From NCBI GenBank assembly GCA_016181845.1, contig JACOYO010000006.1, positions 1 to 52,447 on the forward strand: 52,447 nucleotides of DNA. The letters run 5' to 3'. The translations under genes were made by a program, and so were the position numbers. Numbering within the stretch: the stretch's first letter is position 1; each line of letters begins with the position of its first letter. Positions 7,776 to 49,253 of the stretch are shown here, piece by piece. The notes below the pieces were generated by a model, which had not been told where the DNA came from, made no database searches, and saw nothing but the letters and a program-made list of their open reading frames with translations. The stretch is from Parcubacteria group bacterium (GTDB taxonomy: Bacteria > Patescibacteriota > Minisyncoccia > Phycocordibacterales > 21-14-all-47-15).

Positions 7776-7784
7776 GGTATAAAA

Positions 7785-8447: not shown

Positions 8448-8462
8448 GAAACTTAAAATATG

Positions 8463-8561: not shown

Positions 8562-8567
8562 ATTATG

Positions 8568-9206
8568 CTATCCTCTGATTTCCAAAAGCGTGCCTCGGCG
8601 GCCTGGAACCGCGCCAGAAACGATAAGCGTTTGTGCTTCCGTGTCGGTGGCGAGTACCGTCAGATTTTTTATCTGAATTCGGTCGCCGCCCATACGTCCC
8701 GCCATCCGCATTCCTCTGATAACCCTGCCCCCGGCGCGTCCTCCGCCTCCGATAGAACCCGGCTCGCGTTCTGAATGTTTTTGCCCGTGCGAACGCGGCC
8801 CGCCCTTAAATCCATGCCGCTTTACCACCCCTTGAAATCCTTTTCCTTTTGAAACCCCAGCAACGCTTACCATGTCTCCTTTGGAGAAAACAGAAACATC
8901 AATGCTGTTTCCGACTGCGACACCATCCAAACCGCCAGATGTCTTTGGACGAAATTCTTTCGCGTGCTGAAAAAAACCTTTGTCTCCAAAATGCCCTTTT
9001 TGCGCTTTTGTAAGACGTTTGCCGCTTGTTGTCCCATATCCGACTTGCACCGCTTCATAGCCGTCTTTTTCTTTGCTGCGGATTTGCGTGACCACAATCG
9101 GGCCTGCGGAAATAACCGTCGCGGGATGCACCGTGCCGTTTTCATCAAACACTTGCGTCATGTATTGTTTTTTTCCAAGAATGTATTTCATTTTGTTTAG
9201 AATCAT
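8568..9206 (-). CDS. rplC: 50S ribosomal protein L3
   Basis: L3 sequence (GKKQYMTQVFDENG..., FKGGPRSHGQKHSEREPGSIGG). The start could be the second Met at 9191. Confidence 0.95.
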   Translation of the reverse strand: MILNKMKYILGKKQYMTQVFDENGTVHPATVISAGPIVVTQIRSKEKDGYEAVQVGYGTTSGKRLTKAQKGHFGDKGFFQHAKEFRPKTSGGLDGVAVGNSIDVSVFSKGDMVSVAGVSKGKGFQGVVKRHGFKGGPRSHGQKHSEREPGSIGGGGRAGGRVIRGMRMAGRMGGDRIQIKNLTVLATDTEAQTLIVSGAVPGRRGTLLEIRG

Positions 9207-9262
9207 GAATTAGGAAGCAAGAATCAGGAACAAAAAACTGCAAAACAATTTTTTGTAACGGC

Positions 9263-9345
9263 AAGACGTCCGACCTCTGATGTGGTAATTACTTTATTTA
9301 TTATAGCCAATGCCGATGTTTTACCACTGCAGAGGTCGGACGTCT
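9263..9345 (-). repeat. Palindromic element, copy F, inverted orientation, inside the S10 operon between rpsJ and rplC
   Basis: Reverse complement of the core: AGACGTCCGACCTCTGATGTGGTAATTAC...TTACCACTGCAGAGGTCGGACGTCT. Confidence 0.85.
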
Positions 9346-9362
9346 TATGATTCGCGATCCAC

Positions 9363-9758
9363 TTAAAGCATCTTCACGTCAATATTTACCCCCGACGGCA
9401 AGTTTAAGTTTGTCAACGCCTCTATCACGTTTGCCGCCGGATTTAAGATGTCAATCAAACGCTTGTGCACTCGCATTTCAAATTGTTCTCGCGCATTTTT
9501 ATATACGAATGCGGCGCGATTGACGGTGTATTTCTTAATCTCGGTCGGTAGAGGCACCGGCCCAACTATGGTTGCGCCGTACCGAAGCGCGGTATCAATA
9601 ATCTGCTTCACCGAATTATCAAGCACTTTGTGTTCATAGGCCTGAACGCGAATGCGCAATTTTGCGATGGCTTCTTCTTTTTTCTGACGAGGTTTCGCCT
9701 TCAGCGTTGCGGCTTTCGGAGTCTTCGCGATTTTTTTTATTTTTGTTTCAGTGGGCAT
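9363..9758 (-). CDS. rpsJ: 30S ribosomal protein S10 with a ~30-aa Lys-rich N-terminal extension
   Basis: The S10 core begins RIRVQAYEHKVLD. The ORF is 131 aa, whereas S10 is usually ~100 aa. Confidence 0.93.
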   Translation of the reverse strand: MPTETKIKKIAKTPKAATLKAKPRQKKEEAIAKLRIRVQAYEHKVLDNSVKQIIDTALRYGATIVGPVPLPTEIKKYTVNRAAFVYKNAREQFEMRVHKRLIDILNPAANVIEALTNLNLPSGVNIDVKML

Positions 9759-9785
9759 ATCGGTAACCGAAATGATACGGCGATA

Positions 9786-10979
9786 TTATTTTACAATTTT
9801 CGTTACAACTCCGGCGCCGACAGTCTTGCCACCTTCACGGATAGCAAACCGCTGTTTTGCTTCAAGAGCGACAGGTGAAATGAGTTTTACGGTAAATGTA
9901 ACTGTGTCCCCTGGCATAACCATTTCCCGCCCTTCAGGCAACGTAACCTCACCAGTCACATCCGTCGTTCGGATGTAGAATTGTGGTTTATAGCCCTTGA
10001 AGAACGGTGTGTGTCGTCCGCCTTCTTCTTTCTTCAAGATGTAGACTTCCGCTTCAAAGTCGGTGTGCGGAGTTACCGAGCCGATTTTCGCAAGCACTTG
10101 CCCGCGGGTGATGTCTTCTTTCTTGGTTCCTCGGAGGAGGATTCCGGCGTTGTCGCCAGCCATTCCTTCATCAAGCGACTTGTTGAACATTTCAATACCG
10201 GTAACTGTCGTTTTTGCCGTATCTTTGAGTCCGATGATTTCAATTTCTTCTCCTACTTTGATTTTTCCGCGTTCAATACGTCCGGTGGCTACCGTGCCGC
10301 GTCCTTCAATGGAGAAGATGTCTTCCACCGGCATAAGAAACGGCTTATCAACTTCGCGCACCGGTACAGGAATATATTCATCGAGCGCTTTTGCCAAATC
10401 AAGAATCTTTTTTGCCCATTCATCATCAACCGATTTCGCTTCAAGCGCTTTGAGCGCCGAGCCGCGGATAACCGGCGCGGTGTCTCCTTCGTACTGATAC
10501 TTGTTGAGCAATTCTCGAACTTCCGCCTCTACGAGGTCAATCAAGTCAGGGTCGTCAACCATGTCTACTTTGTTTAAGAAGACAATGATTTTTGGCACGC
10601 CGACTTGGCGCGCAAGCAAAATGTGCTCGCGAGTCTGCGGCATCACGCCGTCTGTCGCGGCAACGACCAAAATCGCGCCGTCCATTTGCGCGGCGCCGGT
10701 AATCATGTTTTTAATATAGTCGGCGTGTCCAGGCGCGTCTATGTGCGCGTAGTGCCGAGCATCAGTTGAATACTCGTTGTGTGAAAGCGCGATGGTAATA
10801 CCTCGAGCTTTTTCTTCCGGAGCCGAGTCAATCTGGTCAACTCCTTTTAGTTTTACTTGCTTGCCCGCCAAGTTCAATACATTGAGAATTGCGGCGGTAA
10901 GAGTGGTCTTGCCGTGGTCAACGTGGCCGATAGTGCCTACGTTTACGTGTGGCTTTGACCGGTCAAATGCTTCTGCCAT
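9786..10979 (-). CDS. tuf: Elongation factor Tu
   Basis: [15 protein letters not shown] and NKVD motifs; 397 aa. Confidence 0.98.
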
Positions 10980-11078
10980 AAAGTTTTTAGCGACGAAACA
11001 TTACTCTGCGAGAACAGATGGGTAATGTTTTGCCGTTAGTTACATGCTAAATTATTAATAATATATGTTTCGTCTTCG

Positions 11079-11175
11079 CTCCTTACAGGAGCAGTACACC
11101 TTTTGGATATATTTTCGCTTTCGGCTCAAATCTATCTCAAAAGGTCTTGCGCCGCTCCATGTATTCGCGCCGCAA
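11079..11175 (-). repeat. Three-hairpin structured module (H3-CAGTACA-H2-H1 family), stand-alone copy
   Basis: CTCCTtacaGGAG + CAGTACA + ACCTTTTGGATATATTTT..AAATCTATCTCAAAAGGT + TTGCGCCGC..GCGCCGCAA. Same architecture as the units next to tRNA-Leu(GAG) and downstream of rplK. Confidence 0.7.
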
Positions 11176-11176
11176 C

Positions 11177-11228
11177 GGACGAAATGAGAATTGCGACTCT
11201 CATTTCGCTCCTCGTTAGCCGAAATAAA
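11177..11228 (-). repeat. GAAATGAGA palindrome repeat, copy 2 (inverted relative to 4403-4453)
   Basis: ggacGAAATGAGAATtgcgACTCTCATTTCgctcctcgttagccgaaataaa. Confidence 0.8.
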
Positions 11229-11451
11229 CAACCTATGTCGCATGCAGTGCTTTATTTTTTGTGTTTTTCTTTCAACCCGCCTGCATACACGATGCAGGCG
11301 TCGTGAAAAAACAAAAAAACGCACTTCTGCGATAGTGCGTATATCATAACGCAATAGAAACCCCGCTGTCAAGCAATTGTACAGCGGGGTTAGTTTCAAA
11401 AAATTTTCTGCGAAGTCTGTGAAGGACGGCCCTTCACAGAGATTCTCCTGC

Positions 11452-12636
11452 TCATCTCCTGCGCGGATTAGGCGTCCGAGAGGAAATAGAGGGGTCTCTT
11501 TTTTCAATCGTGACAGACATGGTTTCTTTTTTACCATTTCTCCATATCTCAACAGGAACCGATGTCCCAGGGCGCACCGATGCGACCAATTTTGGGAAAT
11601 CTTCCGATGAAGCAATGGGCACTCCATTGAAAGAAAGAACTACATCTTCGCGTTTGATGCCGGCTTTTTCGGCCGGACCGTCTTTGATTGCCTCTTTCAC
11701 GACCGCGCCAGAATTAGTTTCCAATTTGAACAGTTTCATGAGTTCCGGCGTAACCGGTTGAAACATGATTCCGAGCCATCCGCGAGTGATACTCCCTGTT
11801 TCTTTCAGTTGCGGGAGGGCTTCTTTTATCATATTGATCGGAACGGAAAACCCGATTCCGACATTTCCGCCACGTTCCCCGCCGCCTATAATCGCGGTGT
11901 TCATGCCAATCACCTCACCTTTGGTGTTGATGAGCGGCCCGCCGCTATTGCCGGGATTTATGGAGGCGTCGGTTTGGATAAAGTCGTCGTACGCTTCCCC
12001 TGTCACACCACGACGTCCTTTGGCGCTCACGATGCCTACCGTCACGGAATGATTGAGCCCAAAAGGACTGCCTACCGCCATCACCCATTCACCAACCTTA
12101 AGCGCGCCAGAGTCGCCCATTGGCACGGTCGGAAAAGAAGTTCCTTCAATTTTAATCACCGCGATGTCCGTTGGGGGGTCAGTACCAATCACTTTCGCTT
12201 CATAGGATTTTTCACCGACAAATACTTTGATTTCGGATGCGTCATTTACCACATGATTATTGGTAACGACGTATCCATCCGCGCTAATAATAAATCCTGA
12301 ACCTCCGCCAACACCACCGCGTGGTGGTTGCAGTGGGTCTTCTGGCACATTAAAGGGCGATTGCCCGGGACCGCCAAAAGGCGGTGTGGAAGGAATATCT
12401 TTTCCCCCCGGGTCAGTCGGCACTTCAATAGTTTCTTCTTGTGGCTGTCCACCGTACCTGACTTGGACGCTGACCACAACCGGCAGTGCCTTTTCCGCCA
12501 TTCTCACAAACAACTGTGTATCTGCCATGGCGTTAATACCGACAATCGCGCCATCTTTTGCTATCGGTACCGTGCTACAACCAGCTGCGGCAAAAGATAC
12601 CATTACTGCTACTGCTAAAAGAAAGAATCTTCTCAC
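11452..12636 (-). CDS. htrA: HtrA/DegP-family serine protease with a PDZ domain; lipoprotein-type signal peptide
   Basis: TNNHV, DIAVIK and GNSGGPL catalytic triad context, with a C-terminal PDZ-like region. The best start is GTG at 12636, preceded by aaGGAGGgcaac. Signal RRFFLLAVAVMVSFAAAGC. Confidence 0.85.
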   Translation of the reverse strand: MRRFFLLAVAVMVSFAAAGCSTVPIAKDGAIVGINAMADTQLFVRMAEKALPVVVSVQVRYGGQPQEETIEVPTDPGGKDIPSTPPFGGPGQSPFNVPEDPLQPPRGGVGGGSGFIISADGYVVTNNHVVNDASEIKVFVGEKSYEAKVIGTDPPTDIAVIKIEGTSFPTVPMGDSGALKVGEWVMAVGSPFGLNHSVTVGIVSAKGRRGVTGEAYDDFIQTDASINPGNSGGPLINTKGEVIGMNTAIIGGGERGGNVGIGFSVPINMIKEALPQLKETGSITRGWLGIMFQPVTPELMKLFKLETNSGAVVKEAIKDGPAEKAGIKREDVVLSFNGVPIASSEDFPKLVASVRPGTSVPVEIWRNGKKETMSVTIEKRDPSISSRTPNPRRR

Positions 12637-12747
12637 GTTGCCCTCCTTATGGTTAAAGACAAAAAACACTCACAACGTCTCTTATTCAAGAACTATAGAA
12701 AATGGGATGAAATGTCAATGGCATAACATGACGCGCATTCCTAAGCC

Positions 12748-12784
12748 AAAAATTACTTGGACGTCCGACGTCCAAGTAATTTTT
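12748..12784 (-). terminator. Palindromic terminator-like hairpin downstream of fusA
   Basis: aaaaattacttggacgtc-c-gacgtccaagtaattttt: A-run, hairpin, T-run. Confidence 0.5.
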
Positions 12785-12823
12785 GTGGTTGTTTTGATAT
12801 TTTTATTTTCTTTATTTTTTTCT

Positions 12824-14962
12824 TTATTTTCGCGCTTCAATAATTGTCTGCGCGACATTTTGCGGCACAATCGCATAACTATCAAACTCCATTACATAAT
12901 TAGCGCGACCTTCGGTGAGCGAGCGGAGCGTCGTGATGTAGCCAAACATTTCTGAGAGCGGCACTTTTGCTTTAATGACCTTAAACATCGCGCGGTCTTC
13001 CATGCCTTCAATCTGCGCGCGGCGCGAACTCAAGTTGCCGGTAATGTCGCCCATGAATTTTTCGGGCGTGGAAACTTCCACGCGCATGATTGGTTCCAAA
13101 AGCACCGGCTTTGCTCGTTTTGCCGCGTCTTGAAACGCCATTGACGCCGCGATTTTGAACGCGATTTCTGAAGAGTCAACGTCGTGGAACGAACCGTCAT
13201 AGAGCTCTGCGGAAATATCCGTCATCTTATAGCCGGCAACGACACCGCGTTCCATTCCTTCTTTGATTCCTTTTTCAGATGGAGTAATAAACTCCTGCGG
13301 AATAACCCCGCCTTTGATAGAGTCAATAAATTCAAACCCGGGATATCGTCTAATATTTTTCGGCACCTTCGCTTCAGGGTCAATTTTTTCAAGCGGCTTG
13401 ATTCTCAATCTCACATGTCCGTACTGCCCGCGGCCGCCCGATTGCTTGATGTATTTCCCTTCCGCTTCAGCCGGTATCGTGATGGTTTCCTTGTACGCCA
13501 CTTGCGGCTTGCCGACATTTGCCTCCACCTTAAACTCCCGCTTCATGCGGTCAACAATGACATCCAGGTGAAGCTCTCCCATGCCCCAGATAACGGTTTC
13601 CAATGTTTCCGGGTCAGAGGTAATCCTGAAAGTCGGGTCCTCATCGGAGAGACGTTTCAGCGCCATGCCCATTTTTTCCTGGTCGGCTTTTGTTTTCGGT
13701 TCAATACGCATTGATACCACCGGCTCGGGGAAAACAATTTTCTCAAGAATAATCGGATGCGCTTCATCGCAGAGCGTATCGCCCGTGGTCGTGTCTTTCA
13801 GCCCCACCGCGGCGGCAATTTCTCCCGCGTACACCTGCTTCACTTCTTCGCGATGGTTGGCATGCATCCGCAAAATACGCCCGATGCGCTCTTTTTTGTC
13901 TTTGCTTGAATTGTAGACATACGAACCAGATTCAAGCGTGCCTGAATAGACGCGGAAATAGGTGAGCTGTCCCACAAACGGGTCGGACCACAATTTGAAC
14001 GCGAGCGCAGAAAACGGCTCCTCATCGCTTGAGTGGCGCACTTCCTCTTTGTCTGTTTCCGGATTTATTCCTTTGAAAGGCGGGATGTCCAAAGGCGACG
14101 GCAAGTAATCAATCACTCCATCAAGCACGAGCTGGACGCCGATATTTTTCAGAGCGGAGCCCGCAAACACCGGCACGAGCGCGCCGGTAAGTGTCGCCTT
14201 GCGCAGGGTTTGTTTCAATTCAGCGAGTGGAATTTCTTTTCCCTCCAGATACGCGTTCATTTGCGTCTCATTGTTTTCAACAATTTTTTCAATCAGCTCA
14301 CGGCGATATTTCTCCGCGTCAGATTTCAATTCATCGGGAATAAGAATCTCTTTTATTTCGTTCCCCATGTTTCCTTCAAATAGGTATCCTTTCATCGTGA
14401 GCAAATCAATCACTCCGCGATGTTTTTCTTCTTCGCCGATAGGAATCTGCATCCGCACCGCGTGTTTGGTGAGACGGTCAAGAATCGTATGATAGGAACG
14501 TTCAAAAGAGGCGCCGGTACGGTCCAGTTTATTTATAAAACAGATACGAGGCACATGATATTTGTCTGCTTGGCGCCACACGGTTTCAGATTGCGGCTCA
14601 ACGCCGGCAACTCCGTCAAAAACAACAACGCCTCCGTCAAGCACTTTGAGAGAGCGTTCAACTTCTACAGTGAAATCAACGTGTCCGGGTGTGTCAATAA
14701 TGTTGATGCGATGTTTGAAAGACGCGTCTTTGCCCGCGTAGGTCGGCGTCCAAAAAGCGGTCGTGGCCGCTGATGTAATCGTGATGCCACGCTCTTGCTC
14801 CTGCTCCATCCAGTCCATAACCGCCGCGCCCTCGTGCACTTCGCCGATTTTGTGCGATACTCCGGTATAAAAAAGCACCCGCTCGGTAGTGGTTGTCTTC
14901 CCCGCGTCAATGTGCGCGATGATGCCGATATTTCGTACTTTTTCCAGTGGATAATCTCTCAT
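12824..14962 (-). CDS. fusA: Elongation factor G
   Basis: [21 protein letters not shown]; 712 aa. Confidence 0.98.
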
Positions 14963-15074
14963 TGTTTTATGAATTATGAATCAAGAATCATGATTTATGA
15001 ATAAAAAATCGCAAAGCGATTTTTTACATTTCCAATTCATAATTCCTAATTCGTGATTCTTGATTCCTAACAAA
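14963..15074. repeat. Word-type spacer (GAATCAT/GAATTAT heptamers) forming inverted arms around a central aaaaaatcgc-aaa-gcgatttttt hairpin
   Basis: Tandem heptamers ttatgaa ttatgaa tcaagaa tcatgat on the left; cataatt cctaatt cgtgatt cttgatt on the right. The arms are partly complementary. Confidence 0.7.
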
Positions 15075-15545
15075 CTACCACGCAAAATGGGCAAATGCTT
15101 TGTTTGCTTCAGCCATTTTGTGCGTGTTCTCTCTTTTCTTAACCGACTCGCCTTCGTTTTTGCTTGCGGCGATCAATTCATCGGCAAGACGACGGTGCAT
15201 CGGCACTCCTTTTTTATTTCTAGCCGATTCAACAATCCAGCGCATCGCAAGCGAAAGCCGCCGCTCGGCTCGCACTTCGCGCGGCACTTGATAGTTGGCA
15301 CCGCCGACACGGCGAGACCGGACTTCCATAAGCGGGCCGACATTTTTGAGCGCTTCCTCAAATACTTCAACCGGGCTGGCGTCATTTGTTTTTTCTTTAA
15401 TCAAATCAAACGCGCCGTACACGACATTTCGCGCCGCATTTTTTTTGCCGCGGGTCATAAGGTAATTGATAAACTTCCCCACTTTTGGAGAATCATAAAC
15501 GCGGTCTGGTCCCGGAATATTTCGATTTTTAACTGGTCTTCGCAT
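15075..15545 (-). CDS. rpsG: 30S ribosomal protein S7
   Basis: S7 sequence, 156 aa. Confidence 0.96.
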   Translation of the reverse strand: MRRPVKNRNIPGPDRVYDSPKVGKFINYLMTRGKKNAARNVVYGAFDLIKEKTNDASPVEVFEEALKNVGPLMEVRSRRVGGANYQVPREVRAERRLSLAMRWIVESARNKKGVPMHRRLADELIAASKNEGESVKKRENTHKMAEANKAFAHFAW

Positions 15546-15619
15546 AATATATTAGCTTATTAGGTTTTTGCTTGTTAGCTTTTTAGGAATTCCCATAACG
15601 CCCCTAACAAGCTGAAAAA

Positions 15620-16033
15620 TTATTTTACTTTCGGGCGCTTCGCGCCGTATTGGCTTCGTCCTTTCATTCGTTTATCAACGCCGGTCGCGTCAAGCTTGCC
15701 ACGCACGATTGTGTAGCGCACGCCGATGTCTTTTACCCGGCCGCCACGCACCACCACCACCGAGTGCTCCTGCAACGCGTGACCGATGCCCGGGATATAG
15801 GCTGTGATTTCCATGCCATTCGTCAAGCGCACACGAGCAACCTTTCGGATAGCCGAGTTTGGTTTTTTGGGAGTCGTGGTCGTCACTTTGGTGCACACGC
15901 CGCGTTTGAACGGCGATGGATAAAAAATCGGACGATTTTTAAGCGTATTAAAACCGCGCGCCAAAGCAACCGCTTTTGATTTCCGATTTACTTTTCTCCG
16001 TTTATTTTTTACTAATTGATTTATCGTTGACAT
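15620..16033 (-). CDS. rpsL: 30S ribosomal protein S12
   Basis: [20 protein letters not shown]. Confidence 0.97.
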
Positions 16034-26668: not shown

Positions 26669-27259
26669 TCATAAGTGGCTTTCACGAAGAGAGCGCGATA
26701 TGCTCATGACTGCTTTTCTATGATACGGTTCAAATGTTTTCAAGAGCTCCTTATCAAGCCGCGGCAACCCGGCAAACCGCTCTAATGAAAAAGTTTTTTC
26801 TCCATATCCGAGCGCATCCAGAATGGAAAGCGCCGCAAGCGCCTCAACGCACGCAAGTTCTTTCGCGGTAAGTTTTTCAGCGGCCAAAAAAACGGCCGTG
26901 CGAAAAATAAAATCAAAAAGTGCCACATGTTCTGTTTCGCCGACCACGAGCCTTCTCAAGAGCGACGCGATGCGTGCAAATACGCGAAGTTTTTCTCCGT
27001 CAAAAAAAAGCGCTTGGTACGATGAAAACGGAACGGCGCTGGTCACCCGCCACACATCCTTGCCGCGCACCAGAGCAATCTGCGCGTGTGAAAAATCCGC
27101 AAGCGCAAAACTCAATTTTGAACGAAGCTCGCGTATTCCTTGCGCGCGCACACCAAGAAGCCCGAGATTTTTGGTGAGTACATATAGGTATCGGTTGGAC
27201 TCGCCAATTGATACGCTCCCAAGCACAATCCCGTCGGTCGTGTATATATGGTACGCCAT
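26669..27259 (-). CDS. recO: DNA repair protein RecO (short form)
   Basis: The N-terminal OB-fold-like region TTDGIVLGSVSIGESNRYLYVLTKNLGLLGVRAQGIRELRSKL is typical of RecO. Confidence 0.7.
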   Translation of the reverse strand: MAYHIYTTDGIVLGSVSIGESNRYLYVLTKNLGLLGVRAQGIRELRSKLSFALADFSHAQIALVRGKDVWRVTSAVPFSSYQALFFDGEKLRVFARIASLLRRLVVGETEHVALFDFIFRTAVFLAAEKLTAKELACVEALAALSILDALGYGEKTFSLERFAGLPRLDKELLKTFEPYHRKAVMSISRSLRESHL

Positions 27260-27348: not shown

Positions 27349-30300
27349 TCACTTTTCGTTTTGCGTTTGTATACGCACTCTAAACACCGCATCGTCAACG
27401 GTGATGTCCGCGCCATCTGATACGGCGGCAAAAAATATTTCTCTGGCACGAAGCGCTTTTTTAATATAGGAAAGATACGTATTGATTATTTCTTTTCCAA
27501 AATTATTTGCTTCTATGGTGATAATAATTTCATCGCTCGTGGAAAATTCTTTTTCTTTCCTTATATCCTGCAGGGCGCGGACAAATTCACGCGCCTGTCC
27601 TTCTTGTTTGAGTTCGGGTGTTATCAGCGTATCTAATTCCACATCGTTTTCCATTGAGTCGCTAAATGTTATTTCTTTCACATTTACTTCATCTTTAATC
27701 AGTTGCAATAATTCCTCGTTGTTCCTGATTCCTGATTCCTGATTCCTGATTCTTAATGTCATAAGCGGCTGGCGCACTTTAATTTTTGCTTTCATTCGCA
27801 GGTCAAGCGCGAGCGAAACAATGCGTCGTGCTTCTTTCATTTTTTCTATAATTCCAGTCTCCGCTTTCCAGTTTTCAGTCTCCAGTTTCGGCCATTCTTC
27901 AAAATGGACGCTTGCTTTTACTCCGCCCAACCTTTGATACATATCTTCGGCAATAAACGGCAGTATCGGCGCGATAATTTTTGAGAAAGAGAGCAAGACT
28001 TCGCGTGTGGTATTTCGCGCGTGCTCCTTATCTTCCCCCTCTTCCTTAAATCGATCGCGTGAGCGACGAATATACCACGTGGACAAATCATCCACAAAAT
28101 CGCCGACGGGCTTCACCGCGCGGTCAAGCTCGTAGGCATCGAGCGCTTCTTCAATTTGTTTCCCAAGCACGTTTGCGCGCGCAAAAATCCATTCGTCCAA
28201 AACATTTTTTGTTTTGCGTTTTGCGTTTTGCGTTTTTGAATTTTTATACAGTTCAAAAAAAGAGAGTACATTTTCCAAACGCAGAATAACTTTTTTATAT
28301 ACTTCATCCACGCCTTTTTCTGAAAAAAAGAGTGTTTCTCCGCGCACCACCGGCGAAGCAAGCAGATAGTAGCGGAGCGCGTCAGCGCCATAGGTATTGA
28401 TGATATGCGCCGGATCGGGATAATTTTTAAGACGCTTTGACATTTTTTGCCCGTTTTCCGCAAGAATCAAGCCGTTCACAATCACATTTCTATACGCCGA
28501 TTCTCCAAACAGCCCGATTGAAAGCACGAGCATGTTGTAAAACCACCCGCGCGTCTGGTCCAATCCTTCGGCGATAAAATCGGCGGGAAAATTGGCGCGA
28601 AAGAGCTTGCCTTCTTTGGTTGCGTCAGTCCCCATGTAATGAAACTGCGCGTATGGCATAGAGCCCGATTCAAACCAGCAGTCAAAGACTTCGTGGACGC
28701 GGCGCATCATTCCTCCACACTCACTCCGACGCTCACGGTCGGAGTTCCGACCCCTTTGGGTGTCGGAACAATCAAAAATCATTTCATCAATATAAGGTCG
28801 ATGCAGGTCAAGCTCATAATTGTGATTATGAGGAAACGGCACAAACGATAATGCCATTGAGCCGCCGGTTTTAATAAAATCCTCCCCCGCTTTTTCTTTC
28901 ATGGCGACCGCTTCTTTCACATCAGCTCCAAGCGCTCCCGCCGCAAGCATCCACGACGGATACTCGTGCGTCACTATCAGTATGGTTTTTCCTTGATACA
29001 TGGCGTCCGTTTCAGAAAGGAAATCCATAAGACGATTTTTCATATCAAGCAATGTTTCTCCGCGCGGTGTCGGTTTATAAAATTTTTCTTCCGGCGATGA
29101 AAAATAATCGTGATACACGGACACCGGTTTGCCATCCAAATCGCCCGTGACTAATTCTCTTAAACGATTATCCACGATAATATCAGCGCCCGAAATATCC
29201 AACGCCTCGGCAAGAATATCGGCGCTTTCCTTGGCGCGCACAAATGGCGACGTGAAAATAAAATCAATTTTTTTCTCTTTCAGTTTCTTCGCGGCGGTTT
29301 TCACTTCCTCTTTACCTTTTTCGGTCAGGTGATGCGGAGTATCCGGATTGCCGCTCAACACATTTTCTTTATTGTGTTCCGCTTCTCCATGCCGTATCAA
29401 AATATATTCATTGCGCGGTTTTTTTGCTTTAGTAATATCCGCTAGCGAGCCGACAATGTGAATAGTCGCGCACTTTTCGCATTTCCAAACCGGAATCGGC
29501 GCGCCCCAATATCGCGAGCGCGAGATCGCCCAATCGCGCGCCCCTTCGAGCCACTTGCCAAAACGTCCGTCACGGATATGCTCCGGCACAAAACGGATTT
29601 TTTTATTCGCCTCAATCAGGAGGTCTTTAAATTTTGTCACCCCAACAAACCATGATGACGCCGCATAATTTAGAAGCGGCGTATCGCATCGCCAACAATG
29701 CGGATAGGGGTGTGTTATTTTTTCTTTCGCAAAGAGAAGTCCGCGGTGCGCGAGATTTTTGATAATCATGACATCTGCTTCTTCTGGATTCTCTTTCGGC
29801 TTTACTAACGCTCCGGCAAAATCGGCAACCTCTGTCTTGAACCGCCCGTCCATGCCGACATGCTGAATAAACGGCAAATCATATTTTTTACCGAGCTCCA
29901 TATCGTCTTCACCGAATGACGGTGCGATGTGCACGATGCCAGTCCCGCTTTCCGTGTTCACAAAATCCGCCGCGTACACTTTCCAGCCGTTTTCACGATT
30001 GGAAAGTTTTTCGTCTTTTGAATAATAGTCAAAAATCGGCTTGTATTTTTTACCTATAAGCTCGCTTCCTTTTATTTCTTCAAGAATTTCATACTCTTCT
30101 TTTATTACCGTGAGCCGCTCTTTCGCAATAATATACGAATTCATGATTCCTAATTCATGATTCATGATTCCGATTTTTACATACTCAATATCAGGATTCA
30201 CCGCGAGCGCCACGTTCCCCGGCAATGTCCACGGCGTCGTCGTCCACGCAAGCATGAACGTCCCGGGTTCATCGACAAGTTCAAATTTTACATACACCGA

Positions 30301-30921
30301 AATATCAGTGATGTCTTTATATCCCTGCGTCACCTCGGAAATCGCAAGCGTCGTCTCGCACCGCGGACAAATGTGCATAGACTTGAACCCTTCATAAATG
30401 AGCCCTTTGTCATAAAGCGTCTTGAACGCCCACCAGATTGATTCCGTGTACTGCCAGTCCATCGTGCGGTAGCTTTTTTCCATGTCTACCCATCTCCCCA
30501 TGCGCGGCACCACTTCTTTCCAGTCCGTGTCATACCGAAGCACACTCGCTTTCGCGGCTTCGTTAAATTTTTCAACGCCAAGCGCCTCAATATCTTTTTT
30601 ATTTTTCAGACCGAGCTCTTCTTCTATTAAGTTTTCAATCGGAAGACCGTGACAATCCCAACCCCACTGCCGCCGCACATATTTCCCTTTCATCGTCTGA
30701 TAACGCGGGATGACATCTTTGATGGTGCCGGCAAGCAAGTGCCCGTAATGCGGAAGGCCCGTTGCAAACGGCGGCCCGTCGTAAAAGACAAACGGTTCGC
30801 CTTCTTTGTTTTTTTCAAGTGATTTTTGAAAAATATTGCGCTCGCGCCAAAAACGAAGGATTTCCATTTCCCTTTCAGCAACTTTGGATATTTCTTTTTT
30901 TTGTTCCGGTTCTTTTTTCAT
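27349..30921 (-). CDS. ileS: Isoleucine--tRNA ligase, type 2 (eukaryote-like), with an inserted histidine-phosphatase-like domain
   Basis: PPFATGLPHYGH (HIGH) and KMSKRLKNYPDP (KMSKS), plus editing domain motifs. The insert NEYILIRHGEAEHN...IVTHEYP is at ORF residues ~506-700. An ATG start at 30921 is preferred over the TTG at 30927. Confidence 0.95.
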   Translation of the reverse strand: MKKEPEQKKEISKVAEREMEILRFWRERNIFQKSLEKNKEGEPFVFYDGPPFATGLPHYGHLLAGTIKDVIPRYQTMKGKYVRRQWGWDCHGLPIENLIEEELGLKNKKDIEALGVEKFNEAAKASVLRYDTDWKEVVPRMGRWVDMEKSYRTMDWQYTESIWWAFKTLYDKGLIYEGFKSMHICPRCETTLAISEVTQGYKDITDISVYVKFELVDEPGTFMLAWTTTPWTLPGNVALAVNPDIEYVKIGIMNHELGIMNSYIIAKERLTVIKEEYEILEEIKGSELIGKKYKPIFDYYSKDEKLSNRENGWKVYAADFVNTESGTGIVHIAPSFGEDDMELGKKYDLPFIQHVGMDGRFKTEVADFAGALVKPKENPEEADVMIIKNLAHRGLLFAKEKITHPYPHCWRCDTPLLNYAASSWFVGVTKFKDLLIEANKKIRFVPEHIRDGRFGKWLEGARDWAISRSRYWGAPIPVWKCEKCATIHIVGSLADITKAKKPRNEYILIRHGEAEHNKENVLSGNPDTPHHLTEKGKEEVKTAAKKLKEKKIDFIFTSPFVRAKESADILAEALDISGADIIVDNRLRELVTGDLDGKPVSVYHDYFSSPEEKFYKPTPRGETLLDMKNRLMDFLSETDAMYQGKTILIVTHEYPSWMLAAGALGADVKEAVAMKEKAGEDFIKTGGSMALSFVPFPHNHNYELDLHRPYIDEMIFDCSDTQRGRNSDRERRSECGGMMRRVHEVFDCWFESGSMPYAQFHYMGTDATKEGKLFRANFPADFIAEGLDQTRGWFYNMLVLSIGLFGESAYRNVIVNGLILAENGQKMSKRLKNYPDPAHIINTYGADALRYYLLASPVVRGETLFFSEKGVDEVYKKVILRLENVLSFFELYKNSKTQNAKRKTKNVLDEWIFARANVLGKQIEEALDAYELDRAVKPVGDFVDDLSTWYIRRSRDRFKEEGEDKEHARNTTREVLLSFSKIIAPILPFIAEDMYQRLGGVKASVHFEEWPKLETENWKAETGIIEKMKEARRIVSLALDLRMKAKIKVRQPLMTLRIRNQESGIRNNEELLQLIKDEVNVKEITFSDSMENDVELDTLITPELKQEGQAREFVRALQDIRKEKEFSTSDEIIITIEANNFGKEIINTYLSYIKKALRAREIFFAAVSDGADITVDDAVFRVRIQTQNEK
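27724..27751. repeat. Four tandem heptamers CCTGATT inside ileS (encode RIRNQESGIRN)
   Basis: cctgattcctgattcctgattcctgatt read directly from the sequence. Confidence 0.9.
28211..28231. repeat. Three tandem heptamers GTTTTGC inside ileS (encode KTQNAKRKTK)
   Basis: gttttgcgttttgcgttttgc. The same AAAACGC word builds the spacers at 27283-27365 and 41540-41660. Confidence 0.9.
28828..29412 (-). other. Histidine phosphatase superfamily (PGAM-like, branch 1) domain embedded in IleRS
   Basis: RHGE at nt ~29381-29392, FTSPFVRAKESA, RLRELVTGDLDG and ILIVTHEYP, found in the order expected for His_Phos_1. Confidence 0.7.
30139..30173. repeat. Five tandem heptamers ATTCATG/ATTCCTA inside ileS (encode GIMNHELGIMNS)
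   Basis: attcatg attccta attcatg attcatg attccga. Confidence 0.9.
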
Positions 30922-31112
30922 GCCCAAAGTGCTTTCATCGTATCACGGACGAGAACAGTTGAAAAATCGGTTGTATTCTTTATTTTTCGAAAAATCACCG
31001 CCTGCCGCCACCTTTTAATGACGAGGCGGGATGGCGGGTCATCAAAGAAACTCCGGCTTGAATAAAAACAATCGTAGTGTGCGCGCTTACACTCAAGCTC
31101 CAAAAATTTTAA

Positions 31113-31136: not shown

Positions 31137-31676
31137 TTATTTCTTTTGCATTGCTCTCGGAGCATGCTCAAGTGTATACACCAAGAGCTGAAGTGCGGCT
31201 TCAACTCGCTTCAAATTACAATTTTTGGCACGAGGTTTACTAAAATGAAATGTGTTTCGAACATCATTTAATTCCAAAATATCGGTCGCTGTCTTTTCTT
31301 TTATAAGCTTCTTCGCTTTAAAAAATATCACGAGATCGTGTAATCCTATTTGATATTCTTGCTTTTCTAGTTTTTCTTGAACGGCTACGATAACTGGCAA
31401 ATTTGTTTTTTCACGATGTCCGTACTCTGGCGGTAAAGTCTGTACAAACTTATATTCAAGATACTCGATTTTTTCTCCCCGCACCTTATAAAAATAAAGA
31501 AGAACAGCTTCTATGGCCGACACAACATATAAAATAATTACTCTGTGCGTTTCTTCTCTATATAGCTCTTTCTGCTCATCGTCTTTTGACCGCTTAAAAA
31601 GCGCGTAAATATACTCTATTGAATCCTCTAGTGTTTTGCGGAGCTCTTTATCTGTAATGAAATCTAGATCGTTCAT
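31137..31676 (-). CDS. Hypothetical all-helical 179-aa protein with an RNxxH motif near the C-terminus; possible HEPN-like toxin, unverified
   Basis: The ORF lies in a lower-GC segment. ELNDVRNTFHF has Rx3H, one residue shorter than the canonical HEPN Rx4-6H. I recognise no homology. Confidence 0.45.
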   Translation of the reverse strand: MNDLDFITDKELRKTLEDSIEYIYALFKRSKDDEQKELYREETHRVIILYVVSAIEAVLLYFYKVRGEKIEYLEYKFVQTLPPEYGHREKTNLPVIVAVQEKLEKQEYQIGLHDLVIFFKAKKLIKEKTATDILELNDVRNTFHFSKPRAKNCNLKRVEAALQLLVYTLEHAPRAMQKK

Positions 31677-32110: not shown

Positions 32111-33748
32111 TTACATCTTCGTCGGCGCGGAGATGCCCAGGAGAGAGAGCGATTGCTTGATTGTGGCGCGGGTGAGCAAGGCAAGTTTTAACGCGCCGTC
32201 ATTATATGAATCGTCATCCTGCAGTATGCGGACATCGCGGTAAAATTGAGAAAACGCAGTTGCTAATTCATACGCGTAGGTCGTCAATTTGTGCACTTGA
32301 TAATCATTCGCAATTTCTTCAACCACTTCGGGGAATTCGCCTATTTTTGAAGCAAGCACGCGCGCCGATGGCGCCGCGATATCTGAAAGAACGCTTCCAT
32401 CGGGGACTTTTCCTCGCGTGTTTTCTTCAATGGAGCAAATTCGCGCGTGCGCATATTGCACATAGTAGACCGGATTCTCGGCTGATTGTTTTTTTGCAAG
32501 CTCCAAGTCAAACTCCATGTGCGTACCAAGCGCTTTTTCAAGATAAAACCATCGGAGCGCGTCAATGCCCACCTCACGAACCATATCTTCAAGAAGCACC
32601 ACCGTCCCCGCACGCTTGCTCATTTTTTTTGAGACGCCTTCCTCTTTTAGCGACACGAGCTGGGTAATAAAAATTTGAAAGAGAATATTCCAGCCGAGCA
32701 TTTTTTTCACCGCAAGCATTCGTTTCACATGTCCGTGATGGTCCGCCCCCCAAATGTCAATCAGCCCGTCGTACCCGCGCCCGATTTTATCCGCGTGGTA
32801 AACAATATCGTTCATAAAGTAACTCCAGGTGCCATCGGAACGCTTCACCACACGGTCTTCGTCGTCGCCGTATTCGCTTGTCTTAATCCACCACGCGCCC
32901 TCTTTTTCATATACAAAGTTTTTTTCTTTGAAAACACCAAAGAGCGTCTGCACAATTCCTGAACCGCGCAATTTTTCGTCTTCCGAATACCACACATCAA
33001 ACGGGATTCCCAATGCGCTCTCTATAAAATGGGTATTTTCTTTTTGCACTTCTTTTGCAAGCGAAAATCCCGCGGCGCTCGGGTCATTTTTAAATTTTTT
33101 AATTTCCGATTTGAGATTTGAGATTTGAGATTTGAGATGTTCGGTCAGATATTGTTCTCCTTGCCCCAATGCCGTCTTGCCAAGCTCAATAATCTGCTTG
33201 CTCTCGCGCGAATCATTGATATAAAATTCACGGGTTACCTTTGCGCCGACATACGCCAAAACACGCGCAAGCACATCGCCATAAAATGCTCCGCGTCCGT
33301 GCCCGATGTGGAGCTTGCCCGTCGGATTGACCGAAATAAATTCAAGGTTGACCGCTTCCCCTTTTTTCAATAAAAAGCCGCGCGAAATCTCCAGTCCGAT
33401 TTTCTCCGCGGTTTCAAAAATCGCTTTGTCGGTAAGAAAAAAATTCACAAACCCCGGCCCCGCCCCTTCCACGCGCGCGATGCGCGTGTCTTTTGCTGAA
33501 GCAAGACGCTCCGCAAGCACCCCTGCCAACTCCCGCGGATTTTTGCCGAAATCTTTTGCATACACGAGAGCCGCATTGGTGGCATAATCCCCCTGCGTCT
33601 TGTCTGCCGGACGTTCCAAAAAAGGAGACGGATTTGCTACCCCGATATCGGCAAGTGCTTGGGCAACCATTTTTTTGAGTTCTTCTCGTAACATATCAAG
33701 CATCATAACACGAGAATTATTGAAAATTAAAATACCCCCGCGACGCAA
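32111..33748 (-). CDS. argS: Arginine--tRNA ligase
   Basis: NPTGKLHIGHGRG (HIGH) and KMSKRAGT, with a DALR-type C-terminus. The true start is probably one of the Met codons at residues 15-19. Confidence 0.95.
   Translation of the reverse strand: MRRGGILIFNNSRVMMLDMLREELKKMVAQALADIGVANPSPFLERPADKTQGDYATNAALVYAKDFGKNPRELAGVLAERLASAKDTRIARVEGAGPGFVNFFLTDKAIFETAEKIGLEISRGFLLKKGEAVNLEFISVNPTGKLHIGHGRGAFYGDVLARVLAYVGAKVTREFYINDSRESKQIIELGKTALGQGEQYLTEHLKSQISNLKSEIKKFKNDPSAAGFSLAKEVQKENTHFIESALGIPFDVWYSEDEKLRGSGIVQTLFGVFKEKNFVYEKEGAWWIKTSEYGDDEDRVVKRSDGTWSYFMNDIVYHADKIGRGYDGLIDIWGADHHGHVKRMLAVKKMLGWNILFQIFITQLVSLKEEGVSKKMSKRAGTVVLLEDMVREVGIDALRWFYLEKALGTHMEFDLELAKKQSAENPVYYVQYAHARICSIEENTRGKVPDGSVLSDIAAPSARVLASKIGEFPEVVEEIANDYQVHKLTTYAYELATAFSQFYRDVRILQDDDSYNDGALKLALLTRATIKQSLSLLGISAPTKM
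33108..33135. repeat. Four tandem heptamers GATTTGA inside argS (encode KSQISNLKSEI)
   Basis: gatttgagatttgagatttgagatttga. Confidence 0.9.
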
Positions 33749-48442: not shown

Positions 48443-48979
48443 TTACTTCTTAAACGGCACTCCCAAGTGTTCAAGAAATGCTGTCGCTTCCTCTTTCTTT
48501 TTTGCCGTTGTAACAATCGTAATCGCGAGCCCGAAAACATCTTTCAAGTCTTCATCGGAAGTTTCCGGAAAAATCACATGCTCTTTTATGCCAAGCGTCA
48601 AATTGCCGACAGCGTCAATGCCGGTTTTGACAAATCCGCGAAAATCGCGCATTCGGGGTACGGCAATGTTGAAAAGCTTATCAAGAAATGCGTACATCCG
48701 CGCCCCGCGCATGGTCACCATATATCCGACAGGGTCGCCCTCCCGCAATTTGAAAGTGGCGATTGATTTTTTTGCTCCGCGGAGCGCCGGTTTTTGTCCG
48801 GTAATTTTTGCCAACCTGCTGGCAACCACTTCATTCCGCTGTTTTTTGTCTTTCGCCGAGCCGGTACCCGCGCTCACTGCAATTTTCACCAGGCGCGGAG
48901 CTTCCATCGCGTTAGTATAACCAAACCGCGCTTGAAGGGCTTTGAATGCTGTTTTTTCGTTTTGTTTTGTTGAAATCAT
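48443..48979 (-). CDS. rplE: 50S ribosomal protein L5
   Basis: L5 sequence, 178 aa. Confidence 0.95.
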   Translation of the reverse strand: MISTKQNEKTAFKALQARFGYTNAMEAPRLVKIAVSAGTGSAKDKKQRNEVVASRLAKITGQKPALRGAKKSIATFKLREGDPVGYMVTMRGARMYAFLDKLFNIAVPRMRDFRGFVKTGIDAVGNLTLGIKEHVIFPETSDEDLKDVFGLAITIVTTAKKKEEATAFLEHLGVPFKK

Positions 48980-48998
48980 GGTGTTGGGTTATTAGGTT

Positions 48999-49238
48999 TT
49001 AGCTTTTTAGGCCGCTTTTCTGGTCAACGAGCATCACATTTGACACATGCATCGGCGCCGGATATTCCACAATCTGCCCTTTTTGCCCTCCGCGTCGCGC
49101 TCGTTGGTGTCTCTTTTTTATATTCACCCCCTCAACAACAACCCGATTTTCTTTCGGGATTGCTTTCAAAATCTTTCCTTTCTTTCCTTTATCTTTGCCG
49201 GTTATGACGGCAACGGTGTCATTTTTTTTGATACGCAT
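48999..49238 (-). CDS. rplX: 50S ribosomal protein L24
   Basis: KOW motif IKKNDTVAVITGKDKGKKGKI. Start trimmed to MRIKKND. Confidence 0.92.
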   Translation of the reverse strand: MRIKKNDTVAVITGKDKGKKGKILKAIPKENRVVVEGVNIKKRHQRARRGGQKGQIVEYPAPMHVSNVMLVDQKSGLKS

Positions 49239-49253
49239 AAAAATAAAATTCAA

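Follow-up and report, generated by a model that had tools for sequence, protein, structure and literature searches.

Few enzymes are as strongly conserved as aminoacyl-tRNA synthetases, and new catalytic domains within them are rare in bacteria and usually signal new biology. The question raised by this Parcubacteria locus is why a second enzyme, a branch-1 histidine phosphatase, should be nested within an isoleucyl-tRNA synthetase (IleRS). The gene lies in the window, by which we mean the whole 52,447-nucleotide stretch of DNA that was analysed. A sequence-only reading of this DNA had placed an in-frame histidine-phosphatase domain at positions 28828-29412 within ileS; the domain, its borders and its coordinates all proved accurate, with the 195-aa segment by itself matching Pfam PF00300 at E=3.8e-35 (121.8 bits, cut-off 21.7). 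The minus strand of the gene had been left unstated. The same reading knew of no aminoacyl-tRNA synthetase with such a domain, and in the literature searched no IleRS or other synthetase with a histidine-phosphatase domain has been described. The host gene and its synthetic-site signatures are as follows.

27349..30921, minus strand: ileS, type-2 isoleucyl-tRNA synthetase, complete, with nested phosphatase (1190 aa, protein P0001)
30739..30750, minus strand: HYGH, the HIGH signature of the synthetic site (from translation)
28432..28446, minus strand: KMSKR, the KMSKS signature (from translation)

The mechanical open reading frame (27349..30927, minus strand) begins at a TTG, and translation likely starts instead at the ATG at 30921, giving the 1190-aa database protein P0001, to which the window ORF is 100% identical across 1190 aa. 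The window protein scores 865.6 bits against the TIGR00392 ileS profile (cut-off 621.4), and the eukaryote-like, type-2 character assigned to it earlier is borne out by its nearest solved IleRS, which are human and yeast cytoplasmic, Priestia IleRS2 and Thermus thermophilus. In phmmer searches the human, Priestia IleRS2, yeast, Candida and T. thermophilus enzymes matched at E=1e-220 to 1e-203, whereas type-1 IleRS matched only at 1e-92 or weaker; the Foldseek order of IleRS structures agrees, with type-2 first, and the closest PDB folds to the P0001 model are IleRS2 8c8v and yeast IleRS. The CP1 editing motifs TTPWT and GTGIVH were found, as was PF19302, the DUF5915-type C-terminal domain, in place of the bacterial zinc-binding domain, and the AF2 model of the full-length protein has pLDDT 90.3 and pTM 0.84. 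The window gene, which sits at the orthologous single-copy position of the argS-ileS-recO cluster, is the housekeeping type-2 IleRS of the organism, with synthetic and editing motifs and both zinc sites intact. It is not a mupirocin-resistance allele of the MupA or MupB type, because both exception models score far below cut-off (732 and 770 bits, respectively, against 1900).

The inserted domain and its catalytic residues are located as follows.

28828..29412, minus strand: inserted histidine phosphatase (branch 1) domain, P0001 residues 504-698 (Pfam PF00300)
29386..29394, minus strand: RHG motif with the nucleophilic His (R510-H511-G512; 100%, 100% and 99% conserved among the best 120 homologues)
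29371-29373, minus strand: N517, catalytic (translation and alignment)
29236-29238, minus strand: R562, catalytic Arg (translation and alignment)
29155-29157, minus strand: E589, catalytic Glu, proton donor (translation and alignment)
28966..28968, minus strand: H652, second catalytic His, in the THEYP motif (translation and alignment)

In the whole ORF, His_Phos_1 (PF00300) matches residues 509-673 (E=1.2e-33, 116.8 bits, cut-off 21.7) and cuts the tRNA-synt_1 match into two parts. R510, H511, G512, N517, R562, E589 and H652 are all present, are 99-100% conserved in the best 120 homologues and, as verified by translation, lie in the order earlier read for the RHG His, Arg, acidic residue and second His. 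Modelled alone by AF2, the domain reaches pLDDT 90.5 and pTM 0.87, which is consistent with an autonomous unit, and it is predicted to have the alpha/beta PGM-type fold, matching structures of PhoE, phosphoserine phosphatase (PSP), CobC and dPGM; the top Foldseek matches to the model are 9mmh, 4ij6, 1h2e and CobC (TM 0.73-0.81, probability 1.00). Its earlier description as PGAM-like holds at the superfamily level but fails for dPGM itself, and a true dPGM or glycolytic role was rejected, with NF038349 at 95 bits against a cut-off of 225 and TIGR01258 at 57.8 against 81.7. The family profile searched against the PDB is led by PhoE (E=1e-22) and aligns almost full length to PhoE, PSP and CobC, but to dPGM only over positions 6-116 of 189. 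Judged by its sequence, the domain is a small phosphatase of PhoE/CobC/phosphoserine-phosphatase type and not a true phosphoglycerate mutase; it is whole, and its catalytic set is intact. No NCBIfam equivalog model reaches its cut-off on the insert, and neither sequence nor fold singled out a substrate, as PhoE, phosphoserine phosphatase, CobC, GpgP and the riboflavin-pathway HFP, its closest characterised relatives and all metabolite phosphatases, are about equally close. Mean identity to the window protein is 50% in the insert, 55% in the anticodon domain and 39% in the C-terminal domain, with the catalytic columns invariant, and the insert is under purifying selection. The pI, a proxy for RNA binding, is 5.4 for the window insert and averages 6.5 for fused domains and 9.1 for standalone proteins, a contrast that is suggestive but undecisive.

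Branch-1 enzymes also include protein phosphatases such as Sts and PGAM5. The domain could accordingly be a regulatory module, either removing phosphate from Ser, Thr, Tyr or His of IleRS or a partner, or serving as a sensor whose phospho-histidine state reports a phosphorylated metabolite and tunes charging to the energy state. The partial match to the SixA model (47.5 bits) would fit such a role, as would the full-length model, whose pTM of 0.84 suggests defined domain docking, and the embedding of a histidine-phosphatase domain in the tRNA-gene transcription factor TFIIIC. The SixA match is, however, under cut-off and covers the N-terminal 75 residues only, and the conserved cluster contains no kinase partner. 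Both variants together appear very improbable, none of the results speaking for them directly.

Where the domain sits in the synthetase can be read from the following features.

29503..29541, minus strand: CP2-CP3 linker ARDWAISRSRYWG (from translation)
29413..29502, minus strand: CP3 N-terminal half with the first zinc-knuckle pair, CEKC (C481, C484; cysteines 99% conserved)
28687..28827, minus strand: CP3 C-terminal half, with the conserved return linker (P)HN..YELDLHRPYID and the second pair, C718 and C735
28723..28767, minus strand: 15-aa loop SDTQRGRNSDRERRS between the third and fourth cysteines of the zinc knuckle (45-nt twin hairpin)

Alignment to Priestia IleRS2 (8c8u) equates query 488 with chain 464 and query 706 with chain 486, such that about 217 residues stand where Priestia IleRS2 has about 21, and in 80 related loci the spacing from ISR..WG to D.WF.SG is bimodal, at 53-69 aa or 246-267 aa. 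IleRS alignment upholds the extra segment of about 195 aa and places it more exactly, at the tip of the zinc-knuckle subdomain of CP3, which is variable. The segment cannot be a mere connective peptide common to most IleRS, because insert-less IleRS carry just 53-69 aa there. The CP3 nomenclature and the CP3 zinc motif of T. thermophilus IleRS are taken from PMC7191050, according to which CP3 topology differs among all solved IleRS. The loop SDTQRGRNSDRERRS is restricted to P0001, P0002 and P0005 and is thus lineage-specific, with pLDDT <50; its encoding DNA holds a palindrome (2 matches against 0.02 expected) and has a fold z-score of -3.3. The insert begins about 30 residues past the CP2-CP3 linker, and in yeast IleRS the homologous segment, 453-ARDWNVSRNRYWG-465, forms part of the pocket for reveromycin A, which lies where tRNA binds (PMC7955072). 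Embedding was at CP3 in all 97 of 97 IleRS-embedded representatives, and none had the N-terminal fusion that would be trivially reachable, which suggests that geometry matters.

The nested architecture is present in all of the best 120 homologues and in 30 GTDB species genomes, all Patescibacteria and mostly Parcubacteria, and across more than 120 independent protein clusters; these clusters and genomes come from many studies. Misassembly is excluded because these clusters and species genomes share the architecture, and G+C across the insert junctions is unremarkable. Nor is the insert an intein, as it is wholly covered by His_Phos_1 with no Hint or endonuclease family found, and its junctions, which had earlier been read as not of intein type, have an invariant Asn as first residue and, after a conserved C-terminal PHN, a residue that varies among H, A, E and K and is not Cys, Ser or Thr. 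Apart from the unusual architecture itself, nothing speaks for an assembly chimera, for an intein or for the in-frame capture of a mobile element, while the identical junctions across clusters and species, the purifying selection with invariant catalytic residues, and the lack of Hint, endonuclease or transposase domains in P0001 all argue that any such artefact or selfish origin is almost certainly wrong. The nested phosphatase is clade-wide, already present in public protein databases without comment, and no one-off.

Some IleRS hold two to four phosphatase copies in tandem, and of the 16 positions that the alignment covers in these proteins, 15 keep the R-H-N-R-E-H set; one copy has Ala replacing Asn517, and one is cut off by a contig end. 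Two relatives of the window protein, P0110 and P0185, have a GNAT domain besides the phosphatase, and the same IleRS lineage tolerates in-frame GNAT and even IS200-like Y1 transposase domains. Some Patescibacteria IleRS (L033, L036 and L049) lack the insert and also have no phosphatase gene closer than 6 kb. In other phyla, 50 insert-less ileS loci were examined to a distance of 6 kb and showed no standalone homologue. For the best-scoring short relative, P0126, perhaps a fragment, a homologue search returned only itself, on a 1049-bp contig.

In sister lineages the phosphatase is encoded apart from ileS and next to it, in a cluster whose other members in the window are the following.

32111..33748, minus strand: argS, upstream in the argS-(phosphatase)-ileS-recO cluster (Arg_tRNA_synt_N, tRNA-synt_1d and DALR_1 Pfam matches)
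26669..27259, minus strand: recO, downstream in the argS-(phosphatase)-ileS-recO cluster (Pfam RecO_N)

The closest free-standing relative, of 186-211 aa, lies immediately 5' of an insert-less ileS at all seven loci looked up (7/7), the two genes overlapping by as much as 4 bp or standing up to 5 nt apart, and these juxtaposed proteins share 34-67% identity with the reference standalone protein. The standalone-phosphatase loci L081-L089 and the window have argS–ileS–recO synteny in common, and in L091 the phosphatase remains beside argS with ileS gone from the cluster. Relatives of the domain occur in C-terminal fusions as well, with ArgRS, where trivial read-through of adjacent genes could be the cause, and with Sua5/TsaC, at an unrelated locus on a single 3.7-kb contig. 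In a neighbour-joining tree of the IleRS core, insert-bearing and insert-less forms are interspersed, and in a domain tree, built without support values or outgroup, 45 of 49 standalone proteins form one clade. The window itself, over its 52 kb, contains no further His_Phos_1 gene, no pyrophosphatase and no kinase. The nested form is the covalent version of a phosphatase–IleRS partnership that is conserved in Parcubacteria.

These data suggest that the phosphatase is active and probably functionally coupled to synthetases and tRNA-adenylate enzymes. In the explanation that we favour, the domain would be a phosphomonoesterase working with IleRS, ArgRS and TsaC, its seat in CP3 having been selected, and would hydrolyse a phosphorylated nucleotide-type ligand of the adenylate site. 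The ligand might be a reaction product or an inhibitor, with AMP, a 2'- or 3'-phosphorylated adenine nucleotide and PPi as candidates, and its clearance could keep aminoacylation going in metabolically minimal cells. IleRS, ArgRS and TsaC share ATP-dependent acyl-adenylate chemistry, in which ATP enters and PPi and AMP leave, and this is the reason for the nucleotide-ligand guess; that specific class of substrate is put forward tentatively, and the whole explanation, coupling and ligand clearance together, seems to us evenly poised between right and wrong. In its favour are the identity of the domain, its intact catalytic set, purifying selection, confidently predicted autonomous fold and clade-wide conservation, as well as its exclusive siting at CP3, the standalone relative directly 5' of ileS, the ArgRS and Sua5/TsaC fusions (the latter at an unrelated locus), the retention of catalytic residues in tandem copies, the orthologous single-copy cluster position of the window ileS, and the part played by the CP2-CP3 linker in the tRNA-site pocket of yeast IleRS (PMC7955072). 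Against it, AMP and PPi are diffusible, such that a tethered enzyme would be needless, a general pyrophosphatase would serve all 20 synthetases, and PPi hydrolysis by branch-1 histidine phosphatases is not established; moreover, the ArgRS fusion is perhaps read-through, the TsaC fusion is a single short contig, L033, L036 and L049 do without the phosphatase nearby, and the domain is equally close to several enzymes with unrelated substrates.

Alternatively, the domain may be a phosphatase for an unrelated metabolite of housekeeping, for example a sugar phosphate, phosphoserine or a glycerate phosphate, that accompanies translation genes only for co-expression, with CP3 of this IleRS lineage as no more than a permissive landing pad for extra domains. 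Its nearest characterised relatives are enzymes of this kind, GNAT and Y1 transposase domains also enter this IleRS lineage in frame, the topology of CP3 is different in each solved IleRS (PMC7191050), L091 shows the phosphatase kept by argS after the departure of ileS, and tandem copies are compatible with substrate diversification. Such a role would nevertheless leave unaccounted for the tight adjacency in 7/7 look-ups among members 34-67% identical to the reference standalone protein, the siting at CP3 only, with a conserved return linker, and three independent covalent linkages, all to adenylate-forming enzymes of tRNA pathways and one at an unrelated locus, and we consider it unlikely. 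The main rival to the nucleotide ligand is a phosphate on the tRNA acceptor end itself: the domain would strip from A76 a 2'- or 3'-phosphate that metal-independent RNases leave behind or that CCA-phosphorylating toxins add, so that the tethered synthetase could charge the tRNA. Toxins can pyrophosphorylate the CCA end of tRNA. The start of the insert soon after the linker that lines the tRNA-site pocket is consistent with this activity, as is its strict siting at CP3 rather than in an N-terminal fusion; of the partners, IleRS and ArgRS both engage the 3' end of tRNA, and TsaC takes part in tRNA modification. However, TsaC is not known to handle the tRNA 3' end, nor is any branch-1 histidine phosphatase known to act on RNA ends, the acidic to neutral fused domain (pI 5.4 in the window, 6.5 as the family mean) is atypical of nucleic-acid binders, tandem arrays of two to four catalytic copies make little sense for end healing, and PADLOC gave no match for a defence or antitoxin idea, nor was any other defence link found. 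Acceptor-end healing is unlikely, and we retain clearance of an adenylate-site ligand as the preferred reading.

A phosphatase inside or beside IleRS suggests that tRNA-charging enzymes have a helper activity which has yet to be described. A second whole enzyme is maintained in the catalytic body of an essential synthetase over much of Parcubacteria, and the same phosphatase is elsewhere an operon or fusion partner of IleRS, ArgRS and TsaC, which predicts a physical and functional partnership. This partnership may reveal a missing housekeeping activity of organisms with a minimal metabolism, for example the repair of tRNA ends or the clearance of products or inhibitors. Less probably, the phosphatase, at CP3 or bound to IleRS where it is free, would add a step to aminoacylation, shared with ArgRS and the t6A enzyme TsaC, in which erasure of an acceptor-end or adenylate-site nucleotide phosphate would license charging; we think this rather unlikely, but if true it would be a repair or quality-control activity new to any aminoacyl-tRNA synthetase. 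The protein is also a natural case of stable domain insertion at CP3 that could inform synthetase engineering.

Several known systems resemble this one in part. A precedent for a bacterial IleRS with an extra catalytic domain is NF040702 (ileS_w_GNAT), in which the IleRS lineage, the added domain and its site are all different; the window protein belongs to another IleRS lineage because it scores 323.7 bits against the cut-off of 1999 and was rejected as a member. In the RNase H / acid phosphatase proteins (NF005567, Rv2228c type), a CobC/PhoE-like phosphatase is likewise joined to a nucleic-acid enzyme, with the link unexplained, but there the fusion to RNase HI is end to end rather than nested in a synthetase, and the insert scores 78 bits on that model, under its cut-off of 326. 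Yeast TFIIIC tau55 also has a branch-1 histidine-phosphatase domain within the machinery of tRNA production, with no settled role, but it is a eukaryotic transcription factor and evolutionarily independent of the window synthetase. PhoE (Geobacillus stearothermophilus YhfR; 1EBB/1H2E), the Hydrogenobacter phosphoserine phosphatase (4IJ5) and the alpha-ribazole phosphatase CobC are, like the insert, branch-1 phosphatases of about 200 aa, with full-length alignment, the same R-H-N-R-E-H set and TM of 0.73-0.81. Their identity to the insert is only 21-30%, however, and the insert family differs from them in having T/S-H-E-Y-P at the second His in place of the usual S-H-G, and in being nested in, or operonic with, a synthetase. 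None of the solved IleRS structures has a nested phosphatase. The domain order of type-2 IleRS (Priestia megaterium IleRS2, 8C8U/8C8V; T. thermophilus, 1ILE) is that of the window protein, namely Rossmann fold, CP core, CP1 editing, CP2, CP3, anticodon-binding and DUF5915-type C-terminal domain, with Foldseek TM of 0.81 (normalised to target) between these structures and the window model, and the CP3 zinc knuckle of the T. thermophilus enzyme is likewise present. In contrast, CP3 measures about 250 aa in the window protein and 53-69 aa in insert-less type-2 IleRS, because a whole phosphatase fold is nested between the two halves of the zinc knuckle.

The sequence-only reading had claimed a histidine phosphatase nested in frame within ileS, and both translation and Pfam comparison place such a domain there, in the following setting. 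Residue numbers are those of P0001, the IleRS protein of the window; numbers in the ORF are higher by two.

27349-30927, minus strand: ileS ORF, a single ORF holding the whole region, with TTG as a mechanical start
30921, minus strand: ATG start of P0001, two codons into the ORF, giving a 1190-aa protein present in a public protein collection
29503-29541, minus strand: CP2-CP3 linker ARDWAISRSRYWG, just upstream of the insertion and homologous to a yeast segment
28828-29412, minus strand: the inserted phosphatase domain, residues 504-698
28723-28767, minus strand: 15-aa loop SDTQRGRNSDRERRS, a 45-nt in-frame insertion between the last two zinc-knuckle cysteines of CP3

Pfam divides the whole ORF into tRNA-synt_1 in two pieces, Anticodon_1 and DUF5915, with His_Phos_1 (PF00300, E=1.2e-33) between the two tRNA-synt_1 halves, and the 195-aa segment on its own matches PF00300 at E=3.8e-35. 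Judged by every sequence-level feature tested, the host is a type-2 IleRS, as had been proposed: it scores 865.6 bits against the NCBIfam ileS model TIGR00392 (cut-off 621.4), and HYGH, KMSKR, the CP1 editing motifs TTPWT and GTGIVH and both zinc-site cysteine pairs were all found. This IleRS is intact. The same NCBIfam comparison rejected its assignment to 'ileS_w_GNAT' and its identity as a MupA/MupB allele. When aligned to Priestia IleRS2 (8c8u), ORF residues 488 and 706 correspond to chain residues 464 and 486, so that about 217 residues of the window protein stand where IleRS2 has about 21. The insertion lies between CEKC (C481, C484) and C718/C735, the zinc knuckle of the CP3 subdomain, and its point is identical in every domain-bearing IleRS compared. 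CP3 is zinc-binding in T. thermophilus IleRS, and its topology differs among all solved IleRS (PMC7191050). The yeast CP2-CP3 segment homologous to the linker forms part of the reveromycin A pocket, identified as the tRNA binding site (PMC7955072). The spacing from ISR..WG to D.WF.SG, taken at 80 loci from GTDB species genomes, is bimodal: 53-63 aa where the domain is absent and 246-267 aa where it is present. In the two measurable cases of an insert-less ileS beside a phosphatase gene it is 58 and 69 aa, and the insert is therefore no ordinary connective peptide (53-69 aa without it vs 246-267 aa).

The 15-aa loop makes C-x16-C out of C-x-C in the CP3 zinc knuckle, is disordered in the AlphaFold2 prediction, and is shared only by P0002 and P0005 among 119 aligned homologues. 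Its DNA holds two adjoining hairpins with the same arms, TCCGAC/GTCGGA (2 matches vs 0.02 expected; MFE -27.7 kcal/mol, z=-3.3), and has the look of a very small palindromic element that became fixed in frame. A small additional loop (AHSTGSGQD) occupies the same spot in the IleRS of locus L033.

By profile, catalytic residues and predicted fold, the insert belongs to branch 1 of the histidine phosphatases. AlphaFold2 models it alone with pLDDT 90.5 and pTM 0.87, and within the whole protein (pLDDT 90.3, pTM 0.84) its part reaches 91-97; the phosphatase nested in CP3 is intact and, on these predictions, folds autonomously. The nearest solved proteins by sequence are PhoE, a Hydrogenobacter phosphoserine phosphatase, CobC and a riboflavin-pathway histidine-family phosphatase, and Foldseek returns the same four with almost equal scores (TM 0.73-0.81). 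Small histidine phosphatases are also the nearest NCBIfam models, every one under its equivalog cut-off. The description 'PGAM-like' holds at the level of the superfamily, but not for dPGM: all dPGM models fall below cut-off, and the family profile can be aligned almost end to end with small phosphatases but only at positions 6-116 of 189 with cofactor-dependent mutases. The domain is therefore a PhoE/CobC-type phosphatase, for which neither sequence nor fold points to a substrate.

All of the 120 best homologues carry PF00300 (55-83% identical; NCBI, JGI, ENA and Logan assemblies), and in 30 GTDB species genomes the match spans both junctions. These come from Lloyd-, Wolfe-, Giovannoni-, Nomura-, Specht-, Ryan-, Yanofsky-, Doudna- and Moranbacteria and include the near-complete RAAC4_OD1_1 genome and a closed 827-kb chromosome. 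Since the homologues and these genomes share one architecture, chimeric assembly is excluded. The domain lies within one long ileS ORF in 29 of the 30, the other (L024) having an ORF split at the insert by a frameshift. Across the alignment of 120 homologues N504, R510, H511, N517, T533, S558, R562, E589, E622 and R630 are invariant, and conservation is at least 98% at G512, G536, D584, R586, Y603, G621 and H652, so that the catalytic residues (R510, H511, N517, R562, E589 and H652) are intact. Mean identity to the window protein is 50% for the insert, about 72% for the Rossmann parts, 55% for the anticodon domain and 39% for the C-terminal domain. By these comparisons the insert is real, conserved and under selection. 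Its junctions are unremarkable in G+C, and an intein is ruled out, there being no Hint or endonuclease domain and no intein-type junction residues. In two metagenome-assembled genomes ileS is split by apparent frameshifts, inside the insert in L024 (ORFs 2-2002 and 1884-3638) and near the N-terminus in L087 (6640-6942 and 6908-9568); these are either assembly errors or pseudogenisation.

A phmmer search with the insert against 1.84 billion cluster representatives gave 14,788 matches, of which the best 150 comprise 97 IleRS-embedded copies, 43 domain-only proteins and 10 with other flanks. Every one of these 97 sits in CP3, and none is an N-terminal fusion. Other Patescibacteria (Staskawiczbacteria, 'Parcubacteria group') have a genuinely free-standing family, whose proteins are 186-211 aa long and share 31-41% identity with the insert; at E<=1e-15 it numbers 2217 members. 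In all seven loci looked up the free-standing gene lies directly upstream, on the same strand, of an insert-less ileS of 954-987 aa, with a junction that varies between an overlap of 4 bp and a spacer of 5 nt; a seeming ORF between the two in L087 is the frameshifted ileS N-terminus. The free-standing members of these loci are 38-67% identical to the reference standalone protein. The order around the pair is argS-(phosphatase)-ileS-recO-DUF11/CLIPPER-like-class II aaRS, and the window has exactly the same gene order. Covalent linkage also takes other forms: in P0177 (L091, 6001-8070) an ArgRS ends in the phosphatase, its gene being followed directly by recO in a cluster from which ileS is absent, and P0260 is a Sua5/TsaC with a C-terminal phosphatase (L090, 977-2140) in an unrelated neighbourhood, flanked by a HAD/P-type ATPase fragment upstream and a PD-(D/E)XK nuclease downstream. 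Sua5/TsaC is the threonylcarbamoyl-AMP synthase of the t6A pathway. Some IleRS (P0130, P0152, P0160, P0208) repeat the phosphatase two to four times in tandem at CP3, and R-H-N-R-E-H is kept in 15 of 16 alignment-covered positions of the tandem-copy proteins, leaving out of the scoring a short fourth stretch of P0130; one P0130 copy has Ala for Asn517, and one P0268 copy ends at the contig end. P0110 has a GNAT domain in the CP1 region, and P0185 an IS200-like Y1 transposase domain together with GNAT; with the tandem copies, these mark the IleRS lineage as a hot spot for the in-frame acquisition of domains.

When the domain sequences are arranged in an NJ tree, one clade takes in 45 of 49 standalone proteins and no fused copy, consistent with a single main switch between the adjacent-gene and inserted-domain states. 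The NJ tree of the IleRS core, which carries no support values, has both forms interspersed. Three patescibacterial loci (L033, L036, L049) have neither insert nor phosphatase gene within 6 kb of ileS, and the nesting of L033 among insert-bearing IleRS in the NJ tree suggests secondary loss there. Mean pI is 9.1 (basic) for free-standing phosphatases vs 6.5 (neutral to acidic) for IleRS-embedded domains, the window's being 5.4, so that charge shifts systematically with architecture.

Between argS and ileS, where sister lineages have the standalone gene, the window has a 179-aa ORF (31137-31676, minus strand; G+C about 0.35) with no Pfam match and no RHG motif; ORFs of 214 aa in L081 and 237 aa in L087, similarly placed, also lack a Pfam match. 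The ribosomal-protein clusters of the window are rearranged (6629-16033 and 48443-51264, minus strand). S12-S7-EF-G-(HtrA-like protease)-EF-Tu-S10-L3-L4-L2 runs from 16.0 to 6.6 kb, with the trypsin/PDZ protease gene (11452-12669) between fusA and tuf, and S3-L16-...-L5, usually found after L2, lies at 51.3 to 48.4 kb, more than 30 kb from the L2 cluster and ahead of it on the same strand. In a region of otherwise housekeeping genes, two adjoining plus-strand ORFs, 1805-2188 and 2198-2758, match PF18895, a type IV secretion system pilin (E=4e-12 and 3e-11).

The partners of the phosphatase, in its conserved gene pair as in each of the three types of covalent fusion, are tRNA-pathway enzymes that form adenylates with ATP. 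Genes that are conserved in tight pairs or fused generally encode proteins that interact or share a pathway, and from this we infer that the candidate phosphatase is active and functionally coupled to IleRS, ArgRS and TsaC. The free-standing protein probably binds IleRS, a contact that insertion would fix at CP3. It is rather doubtful that the enzyme is an unrelated metabolite phosphatase, merely co-expressed, for which CP3 is a permissive landing pad, and a regulatory or protein-phosphatase role is very improbable. ATP, AMP, PPi and the tRNA pathway are common to IleRS, ArgRS and TsaC, and our tentative proposal is that the phosphatase may clear a phosphorylated compound of nucleotide type, either a product or an inhibitor of the adenylate site, such as AMP, 2'/3'-phosphorylated adenine nucleotides or PPi. 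Stripping of phosphate from the tRNA acceptor end is unlikely; the position in CP3, beside the linker of the tRNA-site pocket, speaks for this explanation, but it is weakened by the TsaC fusion, by the tandem copies and by the acidic pI that the fused domain has.

The initial observation and its interpretation stand. The finding is stronger than first noted, because the link between phosphatase and aminoacyl-tRNA synthetase recurs as gene pair and fusions across a large clade, and less unique, because the window shares it with many other carriers. Sequence databases already contain the architecture as 'class I tRNA ligase family protein', and a full-text literature search found no paper describing it, in agreement with the earlier statement that no characterised aminoacyl-tRNA synthetase is known to have this domain. 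The phosphatase is a real and testable candidate for an undescribed accessory enzyme of the tRNA-charging machinery. Comparable in concept are the bifunctional RNase H/acid-phosphatase proteins (NF005567) and TFIIIC tau55 with its histidine-phosphatase domain, in both of which the role of the phosphatase is likewise obscure.
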